From IMG/VR virus record IMGVR_UViG_2563366874_000009: a stretch of DNA of 6,802 nt; one strand, 5' to 3'. A model generated the notes under the pieces. That model was not told where the DNA came from, did no database searches, and was given only the letters and a program-made list of their open reading frames with translations. The stretch's first letter is position 1. Every line of letters begins with the position of its first letter. Of the stretch, positions 1 to 6,802 are shown piece by piece. A program made the translations under genes and the position numbers. This DNA comes from a virus (lineage: Duplodnaviria; Heunggongvirae; Uroviricota; Caudoviricetes).

Positions 1-102
1 TATATAATTATAGATTTATATAAAAAGTGCTTTACAGGTGGGAAAAAATTTCCTATGGTTATACCCGAAACCGAGCGATACCCGCCCTGGTTAAACCGGA
101 GA
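1..102. repeat. Terminal direct repeat, copy 1 (identical to 6701..6802); implies circular or tandem unit of 6700 bp
   Basis: Exact identity of bases 1..102 with 6701..6802 by direct reading; contains junction motif A and the 5' end of the first ORF. Confidence 0.9.
31..59 (+). promoter_or_regulatory. Putative sigma70-type promoter for the DUF3560-like gene
   Basis: TTTACA (31..36), 17 nt spacer, TATGGT (54..59); lies just downstream of AT-rich motif A. If used, it would exclude ATG 55 as the start and favour ATG 109. Confidence 0.3.
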
Positions 103-108
103 AATCTG

Positions 109-1176
109 ATGAATAAACAAGTAATTATTTCTGACTGGATCAACAACCCTAACAGCCTGTTAAGCACTGATACTGGCTACCTATTACGCCATGTTAATGG
201 TCGTATGGTCAAAAGCGATGAGCACGAAACCTTTTTCTTTGTTGAAGACGATGGGCGTATCTATGAGGATGGTTACTCTTATGAAGCCCAAACTGGTTGT
301 ATCCCTGCGGAGCTGGTGGATGTAACAGAAGATCTGCGCAAAGCATGGCTTGAACAGCAGCAGCGCGGAGATGATTACGTAAACACCTATCAGGAACGCC
401 AGAACGCGCGTCTTGCCCGATATATTGCTCGTGCAGAAAAAGCCAGAAAAGAAGGTGCGGTAGCGCGTAAGCGAGCGCATGACCTGTTGGATGTGATCCC
501 GTTAGGCCAGCCGATTTTAGTTGACCATTATAGCGCGAAAGGCCATCGCCGCCGTTTGTCTAAAGCTGATGCGTTATTCAGAAAAGCGTTTGTTGAATGC
601 GAAAGTAAAGCATCACACTACGAGAGCAAAGCCGCAGGTGTTGGTCGTAATGGAATTTCGTCTGATGATCCTGATGCGCTATTTAAGTTGCTTCGTAAGC
701 TGCAAGGCTGCATGAAGTCACACGTCAAAATGAAGGCCGCAAATAAGGCCATTCGCAAATACAAAAAAGACCAATTACAGCAGCTTTCTGCATTAATCGA
801 TCTCAGGTTTACAGAAAGCGAAGCCAAAGAGTTACTGGCCGGAGATTTCTGTGGGCACATCGGATTCCCTTCATACGCACTGAGCAACAATAACGCCGAA
901 ATCAAACGACTACAGAGCCGTATTAAGGAGCTTGAATCGGTCAAGTCTGTAACAGGAGCACAGCGCGAAGAATACGACGGCTTTTCTATGGAGATAGATC
1001 CAGAGGATAACCGCATCCTGTTTTATTTCCCTGGCAAACCAGAGGCAAACATTCGTTCGCTGCTTAAATCACGCGCCTTTAAGTGGAGTCCAACCCGTAA
1101 TGCATGGGTTCGCAAGATTACTCCAAACGCCCTGGCTGATGCCCGATATCTAAAAGAATCGCTATTGAAAGCCTGA
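109..1176 (+). CDS. DUF3560-like protein (function unknown; family often found in prophage/plasmid accessory regions)
   Basis: ORF 55..1176 in track; GGAG at 98..101 is 7 nt upstream of ATG 109, whereas ATG 55 has no well-spaced SD. Central motif GQPILVDHYSAKGHRRR plus flanking Arg/Ala-rich helices match my recollection of DUF3560. Alternative start 55. Confidence 0.55.
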   Translation: MNKQVIISDWINNPNSLLSTDTGYLLRHVNGRMVKSDEHETFFFVEDDGRIYEDGYSYEAQTGCIPAELVDVTEDLRKAWLEQQQRGDDYVNTYQERQNARLARYIARAEKARKEGAVARKRAHDLLDVIPLGQPILVDHYSAKGHRRRLSKADALFRKAFVECESKASHYESKAAGVGRNGISSDDPDALFKLLRKLQGCMKSHVKMKAANKAIRKYKKDQLQQLSALIDLRFTESEAKELLAGDFCGHIGFPSYALSNNNAEIKRLQSRIKELESVKSVTGAQREEYDGFSMEIDPEDNRILFYFPGKPEANIRSLLKSRAFKWSPTRNAWVRKITPNALADARYLKESLLKA

Positions 1177-1187
1177 CAGTAAGCCTA

Positions 1188-1207
1188 CGGCGGGACGTCT
1201 CCCGCCG
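1188..1207 (+). terminator. Perfect 8 bp inverted repeat hairpin (CGGCGGGA / TCCCGCCG) 12 nt after the ORF stop; possible intrinsic terminator
   Basis: GC-rich stem with 4 nt loop, followed by AT-rich sequence with a T-run only further downstream (TATATAGAATTATATATTT). Confidence 0.35.
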
Positions 1208-1240
1208 TATATAGAATTATATATTTATATAAATGTATAA
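1208..1240. repeat. AT-rich junction motif, copy B (ATAGAATTATATA-TTTATATAAA)
   Basis: Shares a 13-mer ATAGAATTATATA and a 10-mer TTTATATAAA with copy A (which has an extra 8 bp ATTATAGA between them); lies between block 1 and block 2. Confidence 0.7.
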
Positions 1241-1253
1241 GGACGCCTCGGCA

Positions 1254-1535
1254 ATGAAACGCAAAATTATTAACCCCCAAGATGTGATTAATTTCCTGAC
1301 CGATCACCCATGTTCAAAAGTGGACGTAATCGCGGAGCACATTGGTGTGTCGCAGAACTCTATGCGTTGCAGACTGAGAAGCATGGTTGCCGAAGGACAG
1401 ATAACAACCAGGAAAATAAATGGTTGCCTGTACTACTCCGCTAAACCGGAATTGCCATTTGGCATGAATCCTAACTCCATGTTGTTTAACACCTTATTAG
1501 CCAAAGTTAAGCCGTTGAGAGGGGCTGTGGCATGA
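1254..1535 (+). CDS. Small winged-helix/HTH-like DNA-binding protein (putative regulator), first gene of the coupled operon
   Basis: ORF 1233..1535 in track; AGGA about 10 nt upstream of ATG 1254, ATG 1233 has no SD. Segment VDVIAEHIGVSQNSMRCRLRSMVAEGQI looks like an HTH. Stop overlaps next start (ATGA at 1532). Confidence 0.45.
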   Translation: MKRKIINPQDVINFLTDHPCSKVDVIAEHIGVSQNSMRCRLRSMVAEGQITTRKINGCLYYSAKPELPFGMNPNSMLFNTLLAKVKPLRGAVA

Positions 1536-1897
1536 GCATCAAAACCCATACCGGAATAATCATTACCAATGATGGTGAGAAAAAAGTGAAGTTGCGCGAG
1601 ACGCCGACAACCTGGTGTGTTGGTCCGAAAGAAACATATCGCAAGGAAGATGGCCGTCGTTGTGGGGCACCACTTTCCCGCCGTCGCCTCCTCTTGAGCA
1701 CGATAAAACCTATCGGGCAGGTTGAGCAACCAACGACTCCGGTAACGAAGATTTCAGACAAGAGTCTGGCAAACCTGATCGCTGATGCGGACAAGGTGCT
1801 GGAGCGGAACACCCCCGTTGCAGATGAGGAATGGTGGCAGGATTTCCGAGCCGCAATGCTAGAGCTTCAGGAACGTCGTCGGGAGGAGTTGAAGTGA
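1532..1897 (+). CDS. Hypothetical protein (121 aa)
   Basis: ORF in track; ATGA overlap with upstream stop and GTGA overlap with downstream start indicate translational coupling; no family recognised. Confidence 0.5.
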   Translation: MSIKTHTGIIITNDGEKKVKLRETPTTWCVGPKETYRKEDGRRCGAPLSRRRLLLSTIKPIGQVEQPTTPVTKISDKSLANLIADADKVLERNTPVADEEWWQDFRAAMLELQERRREELK

Positions 1898-2085
1898 ACA
1901 AGAAAAATGCCGGATGGGTCAGGCCAATGAAGGCGAATAAACATCATTATTTTAATGAAGGTGAAGTAACCAGCATTTGCGGCCGTTGGATGTATTTTGG
2001 TGATTACCGTGAGCCAGACACTTTTGAGAGTCCTGATGATTGCGTGTCTTGTCGCCGGAAATTGAACAAGGTGGCTTCTAAATGA
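1894..2085 (+). CDS. Small hypothetical protein (63 aa) with three Cys
   Basis: In frame with track ORF 1831..2085; GTG 1894 overlaps upstream stop (GTGA) and stop overlaps next ATG (ATGA at 2082). Start codon choice uncertain. Confidence 0.35.
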   Translation: MNKKNAGWVRPMKANKHHYFNEGEVTSICGRWMYFGDYREPDTFESPDDCVSCRRKLNKVASK

Positions 2086-2702
2086 AAGAACGTGGTGTTG
2101 TTTTTAATGACGATATGGTTAGGGCCATCCTCGAAGGAAGGAAGACGCAGACTCGCCGACCTGTAAAAAATGTCAGGGCCGATAACTGCCTGGTTATCCG
2201 TAAACCGACAAAGAAACGCAATGGTGTCTATACCCACGTTATGGATGCACCGGAACATGGTTTATGCCCGTTCGGTAACGTTGGTGATCGCATATGGGTC
2301 CGTGAAACATTCAACGCTTTTTGGCTGGATAACGATGTCATTCAGGAAATCAAAGATGGTGTCTCTCTGGCTTCTGAACTGTGTGATTACAAGGCTGATT
2401 ACTCAGATAGTAGCAAGCCAGCTGAGGGCTGGACCCCGTCGATTCACATGCCGCGCTGGGCTTCGCGTATTTTGCTGGAAATTACCGACGTGCGTGTGGA
2501 ACGGCTGCATGACATGAGCGAGGCAGATGCTAAAGCGGAAGGCGCATCTCCGGCGACGTACAAGATTACACCGCCGGAAGCGGTTTATCGCGTTGGCTTT
2601 GGTGATATCTGGCGCGGTATTTACGGGCAAGAGAACTGGCTATCTAACCCGTGGGTATGGGTAATTGAGTTTAAACGTATTCAGGGGGCAACCAGTGAGT
2701 AA
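2082..2702 (+). CDS. ASCH-like domain protein (PUA-fold; predicted nucleic-acid binding or modified-base recognition)
   Basis: N-terminal MVRAILEGRKTQTRR resembles the ASCH GxKxxExR signature region and DRIWVRE the second conserved motif; assignment from memory of this common prophage family. Confidence 0.5.
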   Translation: MKERGVVFNDDMVRAILEGRKTQTRRPVKNVRADNCLVIRKPTKKRNGVYTHVMDAPEHGLCPFGNVGDRIWVRETFNAFWLDNDVIQEIKDGVSLASELCDYKADYSDSSKPAEGWTPSIHMPRWASRILLEITDVRVERLHDMSEADAKAEGASPATYKITPPEAVYRVGFGDIWRGIYGQENWLSNPWVWVIEFKRIQGATSE

Positions 2703-2952
2703 TTCCGCACGGCTACAGCTTGGTTTTTCACCGCTATCAAAAACCATCGTGTTGGCCAAAATGCGCGATTTAGGTGACGGAACAAAACGCCGTGTAGGCA
2801 ATGATCGCGGTCGTGATGTAACCAACGAGGCCGCACAACTCGTTTGGCATCTTGTCATGGCAGAAGGCGGTGAAATCAATTGGGAGCTGGATGATGGTTC
2901 TCGCATGGTGTTAAGGGCAGAAAAGCAGGGGGCAAACGATGAAAAACCGTAA
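2695..2952 (+). CDS. Hypothetical protein (85 aa)
   Basis: In frame with track ORF 2665..2952; GGGGG at 2684..2688 is 6 nt upstream of GTG 2695, which overlaps the upstream stop (GTGAGTAA). Alternative start ATG 2665 or 2761. Confidence 0.4.
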   Translation: MSNSARLQLGFSPLSKTIVLAKMRDLGDGTKRRVGNDRGRDVTNEAAQLVWHLVMAEGGEINWELDDGSRMVLRAEKQGANDEKP

Positions 2953-3133
2953 AGCAAAGATTCTGTTAGTTCGTAGAAACGCTCCTGGCGTCTGGCAGTG
3001 GGTGAGACTCAGCAACCGACGGATGGGGTTAATGAAACATTACGGGATGATGGATTGTGGTTTTTGCAAAAAGCCCAGCGCGGCGCAAAACCGCTGGAAA
3101 AACCACTGTTATCTGCGCACTAAAGGAGAGTGA
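2939..3133 (+). CDS. Small basic Trp/Cys-containing hypothetical protein (64 aa)
   Basis: ORF in track; GGGGG about 7 nt upstream of ATG 2939, start overlaps upstream stop. Composition is unusual, so it could be a spurious frame. Confidence 0.3.
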   Translation: MKNRKAKILLVRRNAPGVWQWVRLSNRRMGLMKHYGMMDCGFCKKPSAAQNRWKNHCYLRTKGE

Positions 3134-3134
3134 T

Positions 3135-3563
3135 GTGACCACTTTTACCGACAAAGAAATGATTAAAGAAATCAAAGAGCGCATAGGCAGCTTGGACGTT
3201 AGAGACAATATTGAGCGCCGTGCTTATGAAATTGCACTGGCATCACTGGAAGCAGAGCCGGTTGCAGTAAACGACGATATGGCTTACGCATTCCATCACG
3301 CATTGTCAGATTCATCGCTAGGCGCTGATGAAGTAGAGGAAATTAAGGCCGGTTTGCGTGCTGCCTTTGCCAACGTCACTATCCAACCAGAGCCGGTAGT
3401 GCCGGATGATGGGCGCGAAAAGTTCGAAGCACTTGTCAGGTTTCATGCGGGTGATAAAAACCATGAAACATTATTGCTTCGTGCCAACGAAGGGATGAAT
3501 TACCAGGACCCGAATGTTGATCTGGCGTGGATATTCTGGAAGTCCAGTCGTGAACATATATAA
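3135..3563 (+). CDS. Acidic hypothetical protein (142 aa), last gene of the coupled operon
   Basis: In frame with track ORF 3057..3563; AAGGAG at 3124..3129 is 5 nt upstream of GTG 3135. Alternative start GTG 3057. No Cys, so not a Zn-finger Q-type antiterminator. Confidence 0.5.
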   Translation: MTTFTDKEMIKEIKERIGSLDVRDNIERRAYEIALASLEAEPVAVNDDMAYAFHHALSDSSLGADEVEEIKAGLRAAFANVTIQPEPVVPDDGREKFEALVRFHAGDKNHETLLLRANEGMNYQDPNVDLAWIFWKSSREHI

Positions 3564-3579
3564 GCTGTAGTGAGAAGCC

Positions 3580-3759
3580 ATGCGCTTACGAGCAGTATTC
3601 AGATATTCAGAGCGGGTAATGAAGCACATACAACCGAAAACATGGCAGAAACTGGACTCTATGGGAGTTAAGTTGGAGAAGATTACTCAACTTAAGCAGT
3701 GGCATATCGGCGAATATTATGGAAGTCCTGGTCGGGATGTTCGGTTGGTAAAAAGTTGA
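3580..3759 (+). CDS. Possible small ORF (59 aa) in the leader region, absent from the ORF track
   Basis: Read by hand: ATG 3580 to TGA 3757..3759, with internal ATG 3619; non-repetitive peptide; weak SD; antisense to track ORF 3607..3789. Confidence 0.2.
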   Translation: MRLRAVFRYSERVMKHIQPKTWQKLDSMGVKLEKITQLKQWHIGEYYGSPGRDVRLVKS

Positions 3760-3904
3760 ACATTGCTTTTTTATTGATCGATTAACCACGATATGAAGGT
3801 TTTTTTATGGGGAAACCTTGTTTTAGGTGGTAACTGGGTGTAGTGTTTCATTTAACGTAGTAAAACTGCGTTAAGCGATTACCGCGTAATTTGTTGCTTT
3901 ATGA
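3760..3904 (+). promoter_or_regulatory. Structured leader upstream of the lysis cassette (candidate late promoter / antitermination region)
   Basis: Hairpin AAGGTTT..AAACCTT (3796..3819) and imperfect inverted repeat TTAACGTAG..CTGCGTTAA; several weak -35/-10 candidates (e.g. TTGAAC at 3756) but none convincing. Confidence 0.3.
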
Positions 3905-3936
3905 AGCCCTGCCTTTTTCGGCGGGGCTTTTTTTTT
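3905..3936 (+). terminator. Rho-independent terminator directly upstream of the holin RBS (tR'-like position)
   Basis: 9 bp stem AGCCCTGCC / GGCGGGGCT with one G-U wobble, 6 nt loop, followed by a 9-T run; orientation-specific for the + strand. Confidence 0.6.
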
Positions 3937-3949
3937 AACGAGGATTTCA

Positions 3950-4345
3950 ATGTCAGCAGAACCAATTTCCGGTACGGCCGTTGCTGCTGGTGGCCTGATG
4001 GGGGCCAGCGTTTTTGGTATTGCAACTGGTATTGATTACGGCGTTGTATTCGGGGCATTTGCTGGCGCTGTTTTCTATGTTGCTACAGCGGTGAATATTA
4101 GCCGTCTCAAGCTGATTGGCTATTTCTTTACATCGTTCATTGTTGGAGTGATTGGAGCGCCGTTAGTTGGCTCATTTCTTGCCAAATGGACCAGCTACAA
4201 CGATCGTCCTCTTGATGCACTTGGTGCGGTTATTGTGGCTGCATTGACAATTAAAATCCTCACGTTCGTAAACAGCCAGGATCTCGGTAGCATCTTTGGA
4301 ATGCTTTCCCGCTTACGTGGAGGGGGTTCAAATGGTAAGCAGTGA
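3950..4345 (+). CDS. Putative holin (multi-pass membrane protein)
   Basis: GAGGA SD before ATG 3950; three to four hydrophobic helices rich in Gly/Ala; charged C-terminus; sits immediately upstream of the endolysin. Confidence 0.6.
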   Translation: MSAEPISGTAVAAGGLMGASVFGIATGIDYGVVFGAFAGAVFYVATAVNISRLKLIGYFFTSFIVGVIGAPLVGSFLAKWTSYNDRPLDALGAVIVAALTIKILTFVNSQDLGSIFGMLSRLRGGGSNGKQ

Positions 4346-4628
4346 CCCGTCAGCACTGATTAATGCGGTGCTTTGCACAGTAATAGTAATGGCGCTGATG
4401 CTTTATCGACGGAAAGACTCCAGGCATCGTCCATTTGTTTCCTTTCTGGCTTATATCTACGTCATTGTATACGCCAATGTTCCCTTCCGTTATGTGTTCG
4501 GTCTTTATCAAGAATCCCACTGGCTGGTGGTTATTGGAAATCTGATTACCTGCATCGTTGTTCTGTATTTCAGGGGCAATCTGGCGCGAATAGTTGACGC
4601 ATTAGGGTTTAATCATGACCAAAGATGA
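4332..4628 (+). CDS. Second lysis-cassette membrane protein (holin or antiholin-like, about 3 TM segments)
   Basis: In frame with track ORF 4296..4628; GGAGGGGG SD 5-7 nt upstream of ATG 4332; overlaps holin 3' end and endolysin start. Confidence 0.45.
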   Translation: MVSSDPSALINAVLCTVIVMALMLYRRKDSRHRPFVSFLAYIYVIVYANVPFRYVFGLYQESHWLVVIGNLITCIVVLYFRGNLARIVDALGFNHDQR

Positions 4629-5157
4629 GATTTTTAACAGCGTTCTTGGAAAAGAGGGCGGCTATGTGGATCACCCTGACGACAAGGGAGGCCCAACAAA
4701 GTGGGGCATTACTCAGAACACTGCCCGTGCTCATGGATACCGTGGCGATATGCGCGATTTAACCCGCGAACAGGCACTGGAAATCCTTGAGGCTGATTAC
4801 TGGTACGGACCACGCTTTGATCAGGTGGCCGCATTATCCTCTGATATTGCCGCAGAGCTGTGTGATACCGGTGTGAATATGGGGCCAACAGTGGCGTCCA
4901 AAATGCTTCAACGCTGGCTGAATGTGTTCAATCTGCGTGGGAAGCTGTATCCCGATTTGGATGCAGATGGACGAATCGGTCCACGTACCATTAATGCGCT
5001 GCGTGCTTATCTTGGGAATCGGGGAAAAGACGGCGAACGGGTGATGCTGACGTCGCTGAACTGTACGCAGGGCGAACGCTATCTGGAGCTGGCGGAGAAG
5101 CGCGAGGCGAATGAGTCGTTTGTCTACGGCTGGATGAAAGAGCGAGTGGTGGTATGA
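4615..5157 (+). CDS. Endolysin, glycoside hydrolase family 108 N-domain with peptidoglycan-binding C-domain
   Basis: N-terminal LGKEGGYVDHPDDKGGPTKWGIT is the GH108 signature region as I recall it; stop overlaps i-spanin start (ATGA at 5154). Confidence 0.8.
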   Translation: MTKDEIFNSVLGKEGGYVDHPDDKGGPTKWGITQNTARAHGYRGDMRDLTREQALEILEADYWYGPRFDQVAALSSDIAAELCDTGVNMGPTVASKMLQRWLNVFNLRGKLYPDLDADGRIGPRTINALRAYLGNRGKDGERVMLTSLNCTQGERYLELAEKREANESFVYGWMKERVVV

Positions 5158-5432
5158 CTGGTTTGAAGGCCGTTTTGTCATTTATTGGCACAATTATATT
5201 GGTTGCATTCGGCGCGTTTGGTTTTGGTCGTATGAAGGGGCGAGAAAAGGCCGAAGATGAAGCTGAAAAGCAGCGCATAAATGAGAATGCAGCCGCCGTA
5301 AAAGCCACTGCGGAGCGGCGTATAGAAGTGACAAAAGAGGTGGGCAATGTACAGCAGAGTGTTAACCATATGGCTGATGACGATGTTGATCGCGAGCTGC
5401 GGGAGTCGTGGAAGCGTCCCGGTGGTGGTTGA
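5154..5432 (+). CDS. i-spanin (Rz-like; N-terminal TM helix then charged periplasmic helical region)
   Basis: Hydrophobic segment LKAVLSFIGTIILVAFGAFGF followed by Glu/Lys/Ala-rich sequence; position after endolysin; o-spanin starts inside it in another frame. Confidence 0.6.
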   Translation: MTGLKAVLSFIGTIILVAFGAFGFGRMKGREKAEDEAEKQRINENAAAVKATAERRIEVTKEVGNVQQSVNHMADDDVDRELRESWKRPGGG

Positions 5433-5556
5433 TACTGCCTGTGATTGGGTAAAGCCCATCTACCTGACTGATCACGATATCGATGTTATGGACCGCCAGA
5501 CAAAGAAAGATATTCTGGCTCATAACAGGGCATGGGAAATCAACTGCCCCAAGTAA
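5347..5556 (+). CDS. o-spanin (Rz1-like outer-membrane lipoprotein), overlapped architecture
   Basis: AGAGGTGGG SD before ATG 5347; signal peptide MYSRVLTIWLMTMLIASC with lipobox IAS-C; starts within the i-spanin gene and extends past it. Confidence 0.6.
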   Translation: MYSRVLTIWLMTMLIASCGSRGSVPVVVDTACDWVKPIYLTDHDIDVMDRQTKKDILAHNRAWEINCPK

Positions 5557-5590
5557 TATATATTTCTATAATTATATAAATATATAGTTA
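5557..5590. repeat. AT-rich junction motif, copy C (inverted relative to copy B)
   Basis: TTATATAAATATATA matches the reverse complement of the copy B core (about 17/21); begins directly after the o-spanin stop. Confidence 0.6.
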
Positions 5591-5646
5591 CAACATTCTA
5601 TGCGCTTTTCTCATGGGCGCACGCATCAACCATGTTTGTCTGATAT

Positions 5647-5700
5647 GCCGCCGCGCCCAAAAATCCTGAATTTATTGGCTGGGATTTTCGTGCGCGGCGC
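5647..5700. other. Long interrupted inverted repeat 26 bp upstream of the tRNA
   Basis: Outer 8 bp GC stem (5649..5656 with 5692..5699) plus inner 7 bp stem AAAATCC/GGATTTT (5660..5666 with 5682..5688) around a 15 nt loop; no T-run follows. Confidence 0.4.
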
Positions 5701-5725
5701 CACACCAGACAAACAGATCAAATAT

Positions 5726-5801
5726 GGCCCCTTAGCTCAGTGGTTAGAGCAGGCGACTCATAATCGCACGGTCATCGGTTCAAATCCGGTAGGGGCCACC
5801 A
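5726..5801 (+). tRNA. tRNA with CAU anticodon; closest by memory to enterobacterial tRNA-Ile2 (lysidine-modified, reads AUA), phage-borne variant
   Basis: Cloverleaf read by hand: 7 bp acceptor stem GGCCCCT/AGGGGCC, D-arm GCTC-AGTGGTTA-GAGC, anticodon loop CTCATAA (CAT at 5759..5761), T-loop TTCAAAT, 3' ACCA. The 5' half matches my recollection of E. coli ileX; T-arm differs. Confidence 0.85.
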
Positions 5802-6010
5802 ATTCACTCTCACACATAAAGATAAGCGCGGTGGAGTTACTTCCTTCGTGCTCATCTTTATGCGTGCCTGGTGCGCATTTCGGGCGAACGTGGGGCTAAG
5901 TTACAGGCAGGGCCTGTTATCCGCAAAGGGGTAAAAGCTGGAGCGGCACGGAACTGTAGCCGTGTTACCAAAACAGCGTTGTCGGGCGATATCCGGCACA
6001 CAACAGGCAA

Positions 6011-6041
6011 GGGCATTAATCAGTCTGGTTAGTGCCCTTTT
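6011..6041 (+). terminator. Hairpin terminator downstream of the tRNA region
   Basis: 9 bp stem GGGCATTAA / TTAGTGCCC (one G-U), 9 nt loop, then TTTT; T-run is short so strength is moderate. Confidence 0.4.
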
Positions 6042-6109
6042 CGTTGCGTCTGCTGTAGAGCTGGCCAGCGTTATGACTGCCGGAGATAAGCGCCGGAGGC
6101 ACAACTAAC

Positions 6110-6697
6110 ATGGAGGCAATTGCATTGTTTAATCTGATTTATGCAGATCCCCCCTGGGAATACAAAGATAAGTGTAAGGATGGGAATCGTGGAGCTGGTT
6201 TTAAGTATCCAACGATGAAAGCTGAGGATATTGCTCGTATTCCTGTCTGGCAGCTTGCTAATCCTGAATCGTGTTTGTTGGCCATGTGGTGGGTTCCGAC
6301 TCAGCCAGAAGAAGCGTTGCTGGTGGTGAAAGCATGGGGATTCAGGCTTATGACCATGAAGGGCTTCACATGGAACAAATGTGGTAGCCGACAACCAGAT
6401 AAGCTGGTGATGGGGATGGGGCATATGACTCGTGCAAACAGTGAAGATTGCTTGTTTGCGGTAAAAGGCAAATTGCCGACCCGCCTTGATGCGGGGATCA
6501 TTCAGTCGTTTACATCGCCTCGTCTGGAGCATTCTCGGAAGCCTGATGTGGTTCGTGACAAGCTGGTAAGGCTGTTAGGTGATGTTCCTCGTATTGAGCT
6601 GTTTGCTCGCGGTGATTTACCTGATGGTTGGCATGGCTGGGGCAACCAGTGCAATGGAGGTATCCAGTTGCATGATGCTCTCTGGCAAGTGGCATAG
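6110..6697 (+). CDS. DNA N6-adenine methyltransferase, MT-A70-like family (orphan, no cognate nuclease seen)
   Basis: Catalytic DPPW motif (LIYADPPWEY) near the N-terminus followed by MT-A70-like conserved blocks; GGAGG SD about 9-10 nt upstream; stop TAG 6695..6697 abuts motif A. Confidence 0.75.
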   Translation: MEAIALFNLIYADPPWEYKDKCKDGNRGAGFKYPTMKAEDIARIPVWQLANPESCLLAMWWVPTQPEEALLVVKAWGFRLMTMKGFTWNKCGSRQPDKLVMGMGHMTRANSEDCLFAVKGKLPTRLDAGIIQSFTSPRLEHSRKPDVVRDKLVRLLGDVPRIELFARGDLPDGWHGWGNQCNGGIQLHDALWQVA

Positions 6698-6730
6698 AAT
6701 TATATAATTATAGATTTATATAAAAAGTGC
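6694..6730. repeat. AT-rich junction motif, copy A (ATAGAATTATATA-ATTATAGA-TTTATATAAA); also present at 1..30 through the terminal repeat
   Basis: Begins within the methyltransferase stop codon; shares 13-mer and 10-mer with copy B. Confidence 0.7.
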
Positions 6731-6802
6731 TTTACAGGTGGGAAAAAATTTCCTATGGTTATACCCGAAACCGAGCGATACCCGCCCTGGTTAAACCGGA
6801 GA
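6701..6802. repeat. Terminal direct repeat, copy 2 (identical to 1..102)
   Basis: Exact identity with 1..102 by direct reading. Confidence 0.9.

Follow-up and report, generated by a model that had tools for sequence, protein, structure and literature searches.

The stretch of DNA analysed here, the 6,802-nt Caudoviricetes record IMGVR_UViG_2563366874_000009 (hereafter called the window), is very probably a linear contig cut from a circular Enterobacteriaceae phage-plasmid of ~48 kb, in which a unique body (B) is bounded by two copies of a repeat (R-B-R), and not a circle. Its two ends match because each is a copy of a 102-bp cassette present three times in the parent genome, and the apparent 6.7-kb circle thus most likely arose in assembly, with no real small replicon behind it.

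Self-comparison and a repeat search of the window showed that its longest prefix equal to a suffix is 102 nt, the two ends being the same base for base as the preliminary description had reported. An exact match of this length is effectively impossible by chance within 6.8 kb. The two copies, the elements predicted within them and the body between them are listed in Table 1.

Table 1. Features of the 6,802-nt window (coordinates are window positions)
Feature	Position	Strand	Basis or remark
Repeat copy 2 (c2), promoter-leader cassette before DUF3560	1-102	+	Exact copy of 6701-6802
Repeat copy 3 (c3), same cassette	6701-6802	+	Equals pMB17626_3 19672-19773, 100%
Imperfect leftward extension of repeat homology	6695-6700	+	ATAGAAT versus CTATAAA in copy 2
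AT-rich head, three 8-bp TATA-N4 units (TATATAAT TATAGATT TATATAA)	1-23	+	Repeated at 6701-6723
Sigma-70-like promoter, TTTACA-N17-TATGGT	31-59	+	Also at 6731-6759
-35 element TTTACA	31-36	+	
17-bp promoter spacer	37-53	+	
-10 element TATGGT	54-59	+	
Spacer palindrome GGAAAAAATTTCC, GGAAA-N3-TTTCC	41-53, 6741-6753		
Leader, about 45 nt (small hairpin predicted)	60-108	+	Near-invariant in all copy classes
Shine-Dalgarno sequence GGAGA	98-102		Ahead of ATG 109
Unique body B of the R-B-R contig	103-6700	+	Pfam, ARAGORN, gene order common with pMB17626_3 and pECO-b75
DUF3560 protein gene, first of the segment	109-1176	+	Pfam PF12083, E = 6e-31; PGAP in pMB17626_3
tRNA, anticodon CAT	5726-5801	+	ARAGORN: tRNA-Met
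MT-A70 family methyltransferase gene, last of the segment	6110-6697	+	Pfam PF05063, E = 3e-23

The 6.7-kb unit was 97-100% identical, over 87-100% of its length, to an internal segment in about 40-50 complete records of circular, non-mobilizable plasmids of 46-52 kb. These plasmids, which include pECO-b75 (NZ_CP009861.1), pMB17626_3 and the 48.5-kb plasmid of ATCC 25922, were mostly from E. coli and in a few cases from E. albertii, E. fergusonii, Klebsiella or Salmonella, and the unit also matched three 49-kb Yersinia pestis phages (vB_YpM_39/41/44). The gene order of the window is that of the DUF3560-to-MT-A70 segment of these parent phage-plasmids, of whose ~48-kb genome the window makes up only about 14%, and in the records and contigs examined the segment was always found at the same position in the same phage-plasmid backbone. 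By annotation and Pfam, the parent encodes an IncFII-type RepA, a small ParA, a RelE/ParE toxin-antitoxin pair and an XRE/S24-like repressor, together with the virion functions terminase, portal, ClpP-like protease, major capsid and P2-like contractile tail with a lambda-like head; a Ref-family nuclease gene is also present. The RepA gene occupies pMB17626_3 1-981, about 11.7 kb before copy 2, and none of the RepA, ParA, terminase, portal, capsid and tail genes is part of the 6.7-kb unit. The earlier remark that a circle of this size with no replication, integration or packaging genes would be odd was therefore apt, such genes being located elsewhere on the ~48-kb parent. A phage genome with packaging-derived direct terminal repeats was considered and rejected, as terminase, portal, capsid and tail are on the parent outside the unit, and a small-plasmid reading was rejected on gene content and context.

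A literature search returned no published name or description for the ~48-kb phage-plasmid group and no experimental work on vB_YpM_39. Three elements from the literature were set aside: pSLy3 as a member of the SSU5 supergroup, the ST405 'phage-like plasmid' for being P1-like and HQ103 as a peduovirus of 32 kb. Two scans of a contig collection with one genome per species gave no match, the scanned genomes evidently being without this plasmid. One PLSDB record, NZ_CP032086.1, is 94,204 bp long, about double the usual size, and contains the full segment twice, probably as a result of head-to-tail dimerization of the phage-plasmid or of a duplication during assembly.

In pMB17626_3, the cassette (window bases 1-102) was found three times, at positions 3145, 12721 and 19672, each time directly upstream of a different gene, encoding a 126-aa protein, the DUF3560 protein and an 89-aa protein, respectively. 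The native left neighbour of copy 2 is a 125-aa gene. The window is the exact interval from copy 2 (pMB17626_3 12721-12822, corresponding to DADZAO010000036.1 7920-8021) to copy 3, and in complete genomes copy 3 lies downstream of the MT-A70 gene and upstream of the 89-aa gene, not before DUF3560. Ten large contigs were obtained by a look-up of the window's ASCH-like protein, and two of them, DADZAO010000036.1 (47,636 bp) and CAJCLR010000030.1 (53,724 bp), contain all 6,802 nt of the window without a single difference, the repeat copies at both ends among them. In both of these contigs, copies 2 and 3 lie 6,700 bp apart, the DNA on the two sides of the window differs and is unrelated, and copy 3 is followed by ...GGAGATAACCCGATGAAAGTA and not by the DUF3560 start.

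In five contigs (these two and three further ones), the longest exact run common to copies 2 and 3 is the core corresponding to window 1-102, with mismatches directly outside it, on the left as given in Table 1 and on the right as GGAGA-AATCTG versus GGAGA-TAACCCG. Window 6695-6802 has three mismatches to pMB17626_3 12715-12822, and copies 2 and 3 of DADZAO010000036.1 show likewise, so that the left edge of the exact 102-bp match is set by the mismatches in 6695-6700. As the two copies share exactly the core, the redundancy of the window is the parent genome's maximal exact repeat. The cassette, which measures ~110-130 bp in the phage-plasmid, is restricted to this phage-plasmid family, with 190 places in 65 plasmid records (about three per genome) and three places in each of three phages. 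Two PLSDB records, NZ_CP037908.1 (28.5 kb) and NZ_CP140467.1 (27.7 kb), contain only cassette nt 1-47 at 100% identity, a part comprising the AT array and the -35 region.

In the source genome, a stretch of exactly 102 bp is the same in copies 2 and 3, whose spacing is 6,700 bp. Judging from how assemblers work, a short-read assembler would be blind beyond such a repeat. The assembler would extend the unique 6.6-kb segment into the repeat in both directions and halt where the copies diverge, and the outcome would be a contig with identical ends and hence a circular look. An assembly collapse across the AT-rich repeats had been among the possibilities raised in the preliminary description, and the collapse was essentially right, although the repeat responsible is the whole 102-bp promoter-leader cassette and not the AT-rich head alone. 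De Bruijn assembly of a true circle usually leaves a k-mer-long overlap whose position is arbitrary, whereas the overlap of the window equals in length the maximal exact match of two interspersed repeat copies of a larger genome to which the contig is internal, which argues against a true circle. A truly circular phage with a 77-bp assembly overlap artefact has been described (PMC11177050).

Independent assemblies were also found to break at the same repeat. Record IMGVR_UViG_2548876936_000006 (6,544 bp) begins within copy 2, ends within copy 3 and has a terminal overlap of 23 bp; two further contigs also begin within the repeat. Contigs encoding the exact ASCH-like protein were either 20-50 kb (49 blocks) or 2-10 kb long (64 blocks), with none of 10-20 kb. 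The 6,544-bp IMG/VR entry and the other contigs starting inside the repeat indicate that the same artefact recurs in public catalogues. False 'circular' or 'complete' R-B-R contigs, which terminal-repeat detection picks up in viral and plasmid metagenomics, resemble the window in that their terminal redundancy stems from a repeat dispersed within a larger genome and their ends join other DNA in complete assemblies, and nothing essential differs between them and the window. An exact terminal repeat, widely taken as proof of a complete circular contig, can thus mislead; a public viral catalogue already holds at least one similar fragment (the 6,544-bp contig), and treating such pieces as mini-replicons or satellites would create phantom elements.

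We then searched for the junction that a closed or tandemly repeated unit would contain, using a 1.2-kb query across the wrap from the MT-A70 end through the repeat to the DUF3560 start. The wrap junction was contiguous in none of the 74 complete E. coli genomes in which the element is present, and the reciprocal deletion junction was likewise absent from all 74. In addition, 67 repeat instances from complete plasmids, IMG/VR contigs and metagenome contigs, scanned with the conserved part of the repeat, were classed by their left and right flanks. The flanks paired as c1-c1 in 14 instances, c2-c2 in 24 and c3-c3 in 19, and the remainder comprised 7 instances with one variant flank and 3 in which the contig ended inside the repeat; the flank combination of a circle or of a deletion was seen in none of the 67. 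No record of ~6.7 kb was present in PLSDB, where the records covering most of the unit were all 46-52 kb long, bar the one 94-kb record with two places. Contiguous DNA across the closure junction was accordingly not found in independent sequences, and no finished genome or contig examined supports a real circle or tandem array. The circular or tandem unit proposed in the preliminary description was supported neither by these missing junctions nor by the occurrence of the window as an exact linear substring of the 47.6-kb and 53.7-kb contigs with unrelated DNA on either side, and the same evidence left its alternatives of a minimal satellite or an amplification unit unsupported. We consider a real recombination-derived circle or tandem array, both taken together, to be very unlikely.

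One form of such an event would be a tandem duplication or amplification in the source strain (R-B-R-B-R) that the assembler collapsed into a closed unit. Unequal crossing-over can start from direct repeats of 102 bp, and the window alone cannot tell an array from a circle, but the MT-A70-R-DUF3560 junction that an array requires occurred in none of the 74 complete genomes and in no contig, the plasmid sizes are tightly distributed at 46-52 kb with a sole 94-kb outlier that looks like a whole-plasmid dimer, and virion packaging should limit extra DNA. This explanation was therefore judged extremely improbable.

The gene content of the body was also evaluated. It comprises the DUF3560 gene, small HTH and hypothetical genes, an ASCH-like gene, a DUF7446 gene, two holin genes, a GH108 endolysin gene, spanin-like ORFs, a tRNA(CAT) gene and the MT-A70 gene, and Pfam scans of its ORFs found no replication, partition, integration or packaging genes. 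No replication initiator, which an autonomous replicon would be expected to encode, was detected among the window ORFs by Pfam, and the integrase, replication/primase and capsid-size or packaging-redirection genes that define P4-like, PICI and cf-PICI satellites were all absent from them. That the segment is an autonomous minimal satellite or mobile element with a lysis cassette, a tRNA and a methyltransferase, a reading favoured only by the apparent closure of the window, has a practically negligible probability, given the lack of integrase, replication, primase and packaging-redirection genes, the constant position of the segment in one phage-plasmid backbone and the absence of the cassette outside that family.

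The three cassette copies do not evolve independently. Two polymorphisms, TATGGT or TAAGGT in the -10 element and G/T in the array, were each found in all three copy classes, and a copy-2-type spacer between the Shine-Dalgarno sequence and the ATG was found at copy 3 in two contigs. In a Salmonella Weltevreden relative (NZ_LN890526.1), whose flanking genes are 71-80% identical to those of the E. coli plasmid, the copies at 30366, 38180 and 45575 do not differ from one another along about 110 nt, and each departs from the E. coli version (pMB17626_3 3145, 12721 and 19672) by the same eight substitutions. Conservation of the cassette is about 91%, higher than that of the neighbouring coding DNA. 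From the shared polymorphisms, the swapped spacer and the homogeneity of the Salmonella copies, we concluded that the copies exchange sequence by gene conversion. A gene for a Ref-family recombination enhancement nuclease (Pfam RecA_dep_nuc) is located at pMB17626_3 11545-11949, about 0.8 kb upstream of copy 2, and this nuclease might promote gene conversion among the cassettes.

Because the copies do recombine in this way, excision of the segment through reciprocal crossing-over is physically feasible, and a genuine 6.7-kb circle could have formed from copies 2 and 3 through homologous exchange of this kind and become abundant enough to assemble. The perfect 102-bp direct repeats that demonstrably exchange sequence, the spacer swap in two contigs with the eight substitutions shared by the three Salmonella copies, and the nearby Ref-family nuclease gene all speak for this explanation, and the plasmid's nuclease might stimulate circle formation during lytic growth. 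On the other hand, the reciprocal deletion product was seen in none of the 74 complete genomes and in no examined contig, a ~6.7-kb record is missing from PLSDB, the circle would be without RepA, origin, partition or packaging function, and the overlap is the maximal exact repeat instead of the k-mer-sized overlap at an arbitrary position expected of a true circle; we therefore consider it highly improbable. There is likewise only a very small chance that the 102-bp cassettes serve as in vivo recombination substrates through which the phage-plasmid sheds a non-replicating 6.7-kb circle or amplifies the segment. Were it true, the shed circle would carry the lysis cassette, the tRNA and the MT-A70 methylase, and the assembled contig would represent this product.

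With the window read as an R-B-R contig of the phage-plasmid, the cassette itself can be described as a control region. The two cassette sites were the only sigma-70-type matches in the window on either strand, compared with 9.8 +/- 2.7 in shuffled sequences, and the promoter architecture, with -35 and -10 elements at 17-bp spacing, is conserved in the E. coli, Yersinia-phage and Salmonella copies. The predicted promoter, leader and ribosome-binding site would drive three transcription units from identical control regions, with a transcription start predicted at about window 63-68. This functional reading is favoured by the promoter scan, the palindrome counts, the conservation and the concerted evolution of the copies. 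The leader had no family match in Rfam and its predicted fold of -9.9 kcal/mol was not significant (z = -1.9); with Rfam empty and fold z-scores of an unremarkable -1.7 to -1.9, a reading of the leader as an RNA element was rejected as unsupported. As the Salmonella substitutions fall outside the predicted stems, covariation speaks neither for nor against the stems.

The spacer palindrome GGAAA-N3-TTTCC occurs four times in pMB17626_3 and four times in NZ_LN890526.1, where about 0.1 occurrences are expected. Three of the sites are those of the cassettes, and the fourth (pMB17626_3 1580-1592, NZ_LN890526.1 29092-29104) is within a promoter built like that of the cassettes (TTGCCA-N17-TACCAT), which precedes by about 45 bp a gene for a 95-aa protein (pMB17626_3 1625-1912) that adjoins repA and is annotated by PGAP as helix-turn-helix. 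At this fourth site, divergence has affected the sequence around the palindrome but not the palindrome itself. From this distribution, we infer that a single regulator may control all four promoters, and since the fourth palindrome is in a promoter of the same architecture upstream of its own gene, the 95-aa HTH protein is possibly an autoregulated regulator of the three cassettes.

The AT-rich head of the cassette also belongs to a wider set of arrays. The pattern TATA-N4-TATA-N4-TATA gave 11 matches at 8 sites in the 48-kb pMB17626_3, all of them intergenic, where 0 were expected. The arrays are located at window 1-23, 1203-1247, 5550-5602 and 6694-6723 and at pMB17626_3 3138, 8174-8210, 8883-8988, 12708, 13927, 18520 and 19664, with some of them flanking a small ParF-like parA gene on either side, and keep their positions in the Salmonella relative. 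They could be operators or centromere-like iterons. The 82-aa gene adjoining parA had no match in Pfam and no sequence match in the PDB, for which reason the idea of a partition protein acting with iterons remains a lead. A cassette that acts as a regulatory node, coupling a partition-type iteron array to a shared spacer operator in front of three lytic-cycle operons, is more likely than one through which circles are shed, and gene conversion may in that case keep the cassette copies identical.

Phages with dispersed identical promoters or operators include T7, with its conserved 23-bp promoters, and P1, with its C1 operators and late promoters, and 'putative mobile promoters' are known upstream of unrelated genes. 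The cassette resembles these dispersed units in placing the same control region before non-homologous genes, but it is much longer (about 110 bp), includes a leader and a ribosome-binding site and is homogenised by gene conversion. Among partition iterons, the omega heptads of pSM19035 are found at three promoters, the tetramer boxes of TP228 parH have an 8-bp periodicity, and the phage-plasmid N15 has dispersed sopC sites; likewise, short AT-rich arrays with 8-bp periodicity flank the ParF-like parA gene of the present phage-plasmid and occur at several of its promoter regions. A repeated control region would place several transcription units under one regulator, and here an identical promoter, operator-like palindrome, leader and ribosome-binding site precede three operons that are unrelated to one another, in an E. 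coli phage-plasmid that is widespread and clinically common.

The cassette also bears on the start of the DUF3560 gene. PGAP annotates a 355-aa form that begins at ATG 109, with GGAGA 6 nt upstream, while ATG 55, the longest-ORF start, gives a 373-aa product for some gene callers. Since ATG 55 falls within the predicted -10 hexamer and TAAGGT, a common variant of the repeat, abolishes it, the start is most likely ATG 109. The sequence had earlier been described as running without a break from the MT-A70 stop through the repeat into the DUF3560 start; the MT-A70 stop indeed lies 3 nt before the repeat, but the gene start concerned is most likely ATG 109 and not ATG 55.

Several other features were observed within the body. 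The tRNA was identified as tRNA-Met by ARAGORN and in the Yersinia phage record and as tRNA-Ile by PGAP in pMB17626_3, and it may be a lysidine-type tRNA-Ile2. Immediately upstream of it is a 34-nt inverted repeat (5633-5666 and 5682-5715) with 85% complementarity and a 15-nt loop. Downstream of the endolysin gene, a 69-aa ORF (5347-5556, plus strand), which has an N-terminal lipobox-like motif (LIASC) but no annotation in the plasmid records inspected, overlaps the 3' end of a 92-aa ORF (5154-5432, plus strand), and the two look like an overlapping i-spanin/o-spanin pair. Finally, window 3778-3935 (plus strand), an intergenic region just upstream of a holin gene, gave a sub-threshold Rfam match to GcvB (34.3 bits against a gathering score of 42, E = 8e-5), in which a GU-rich stretch is aligned to the GcvB seed region. 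The match ends in a terminator at 3903-3930, the strongest intrinsic-terminator-like hairpin of the window, and the region may encode a GcvB-like sRNA of the phage-plasmid.
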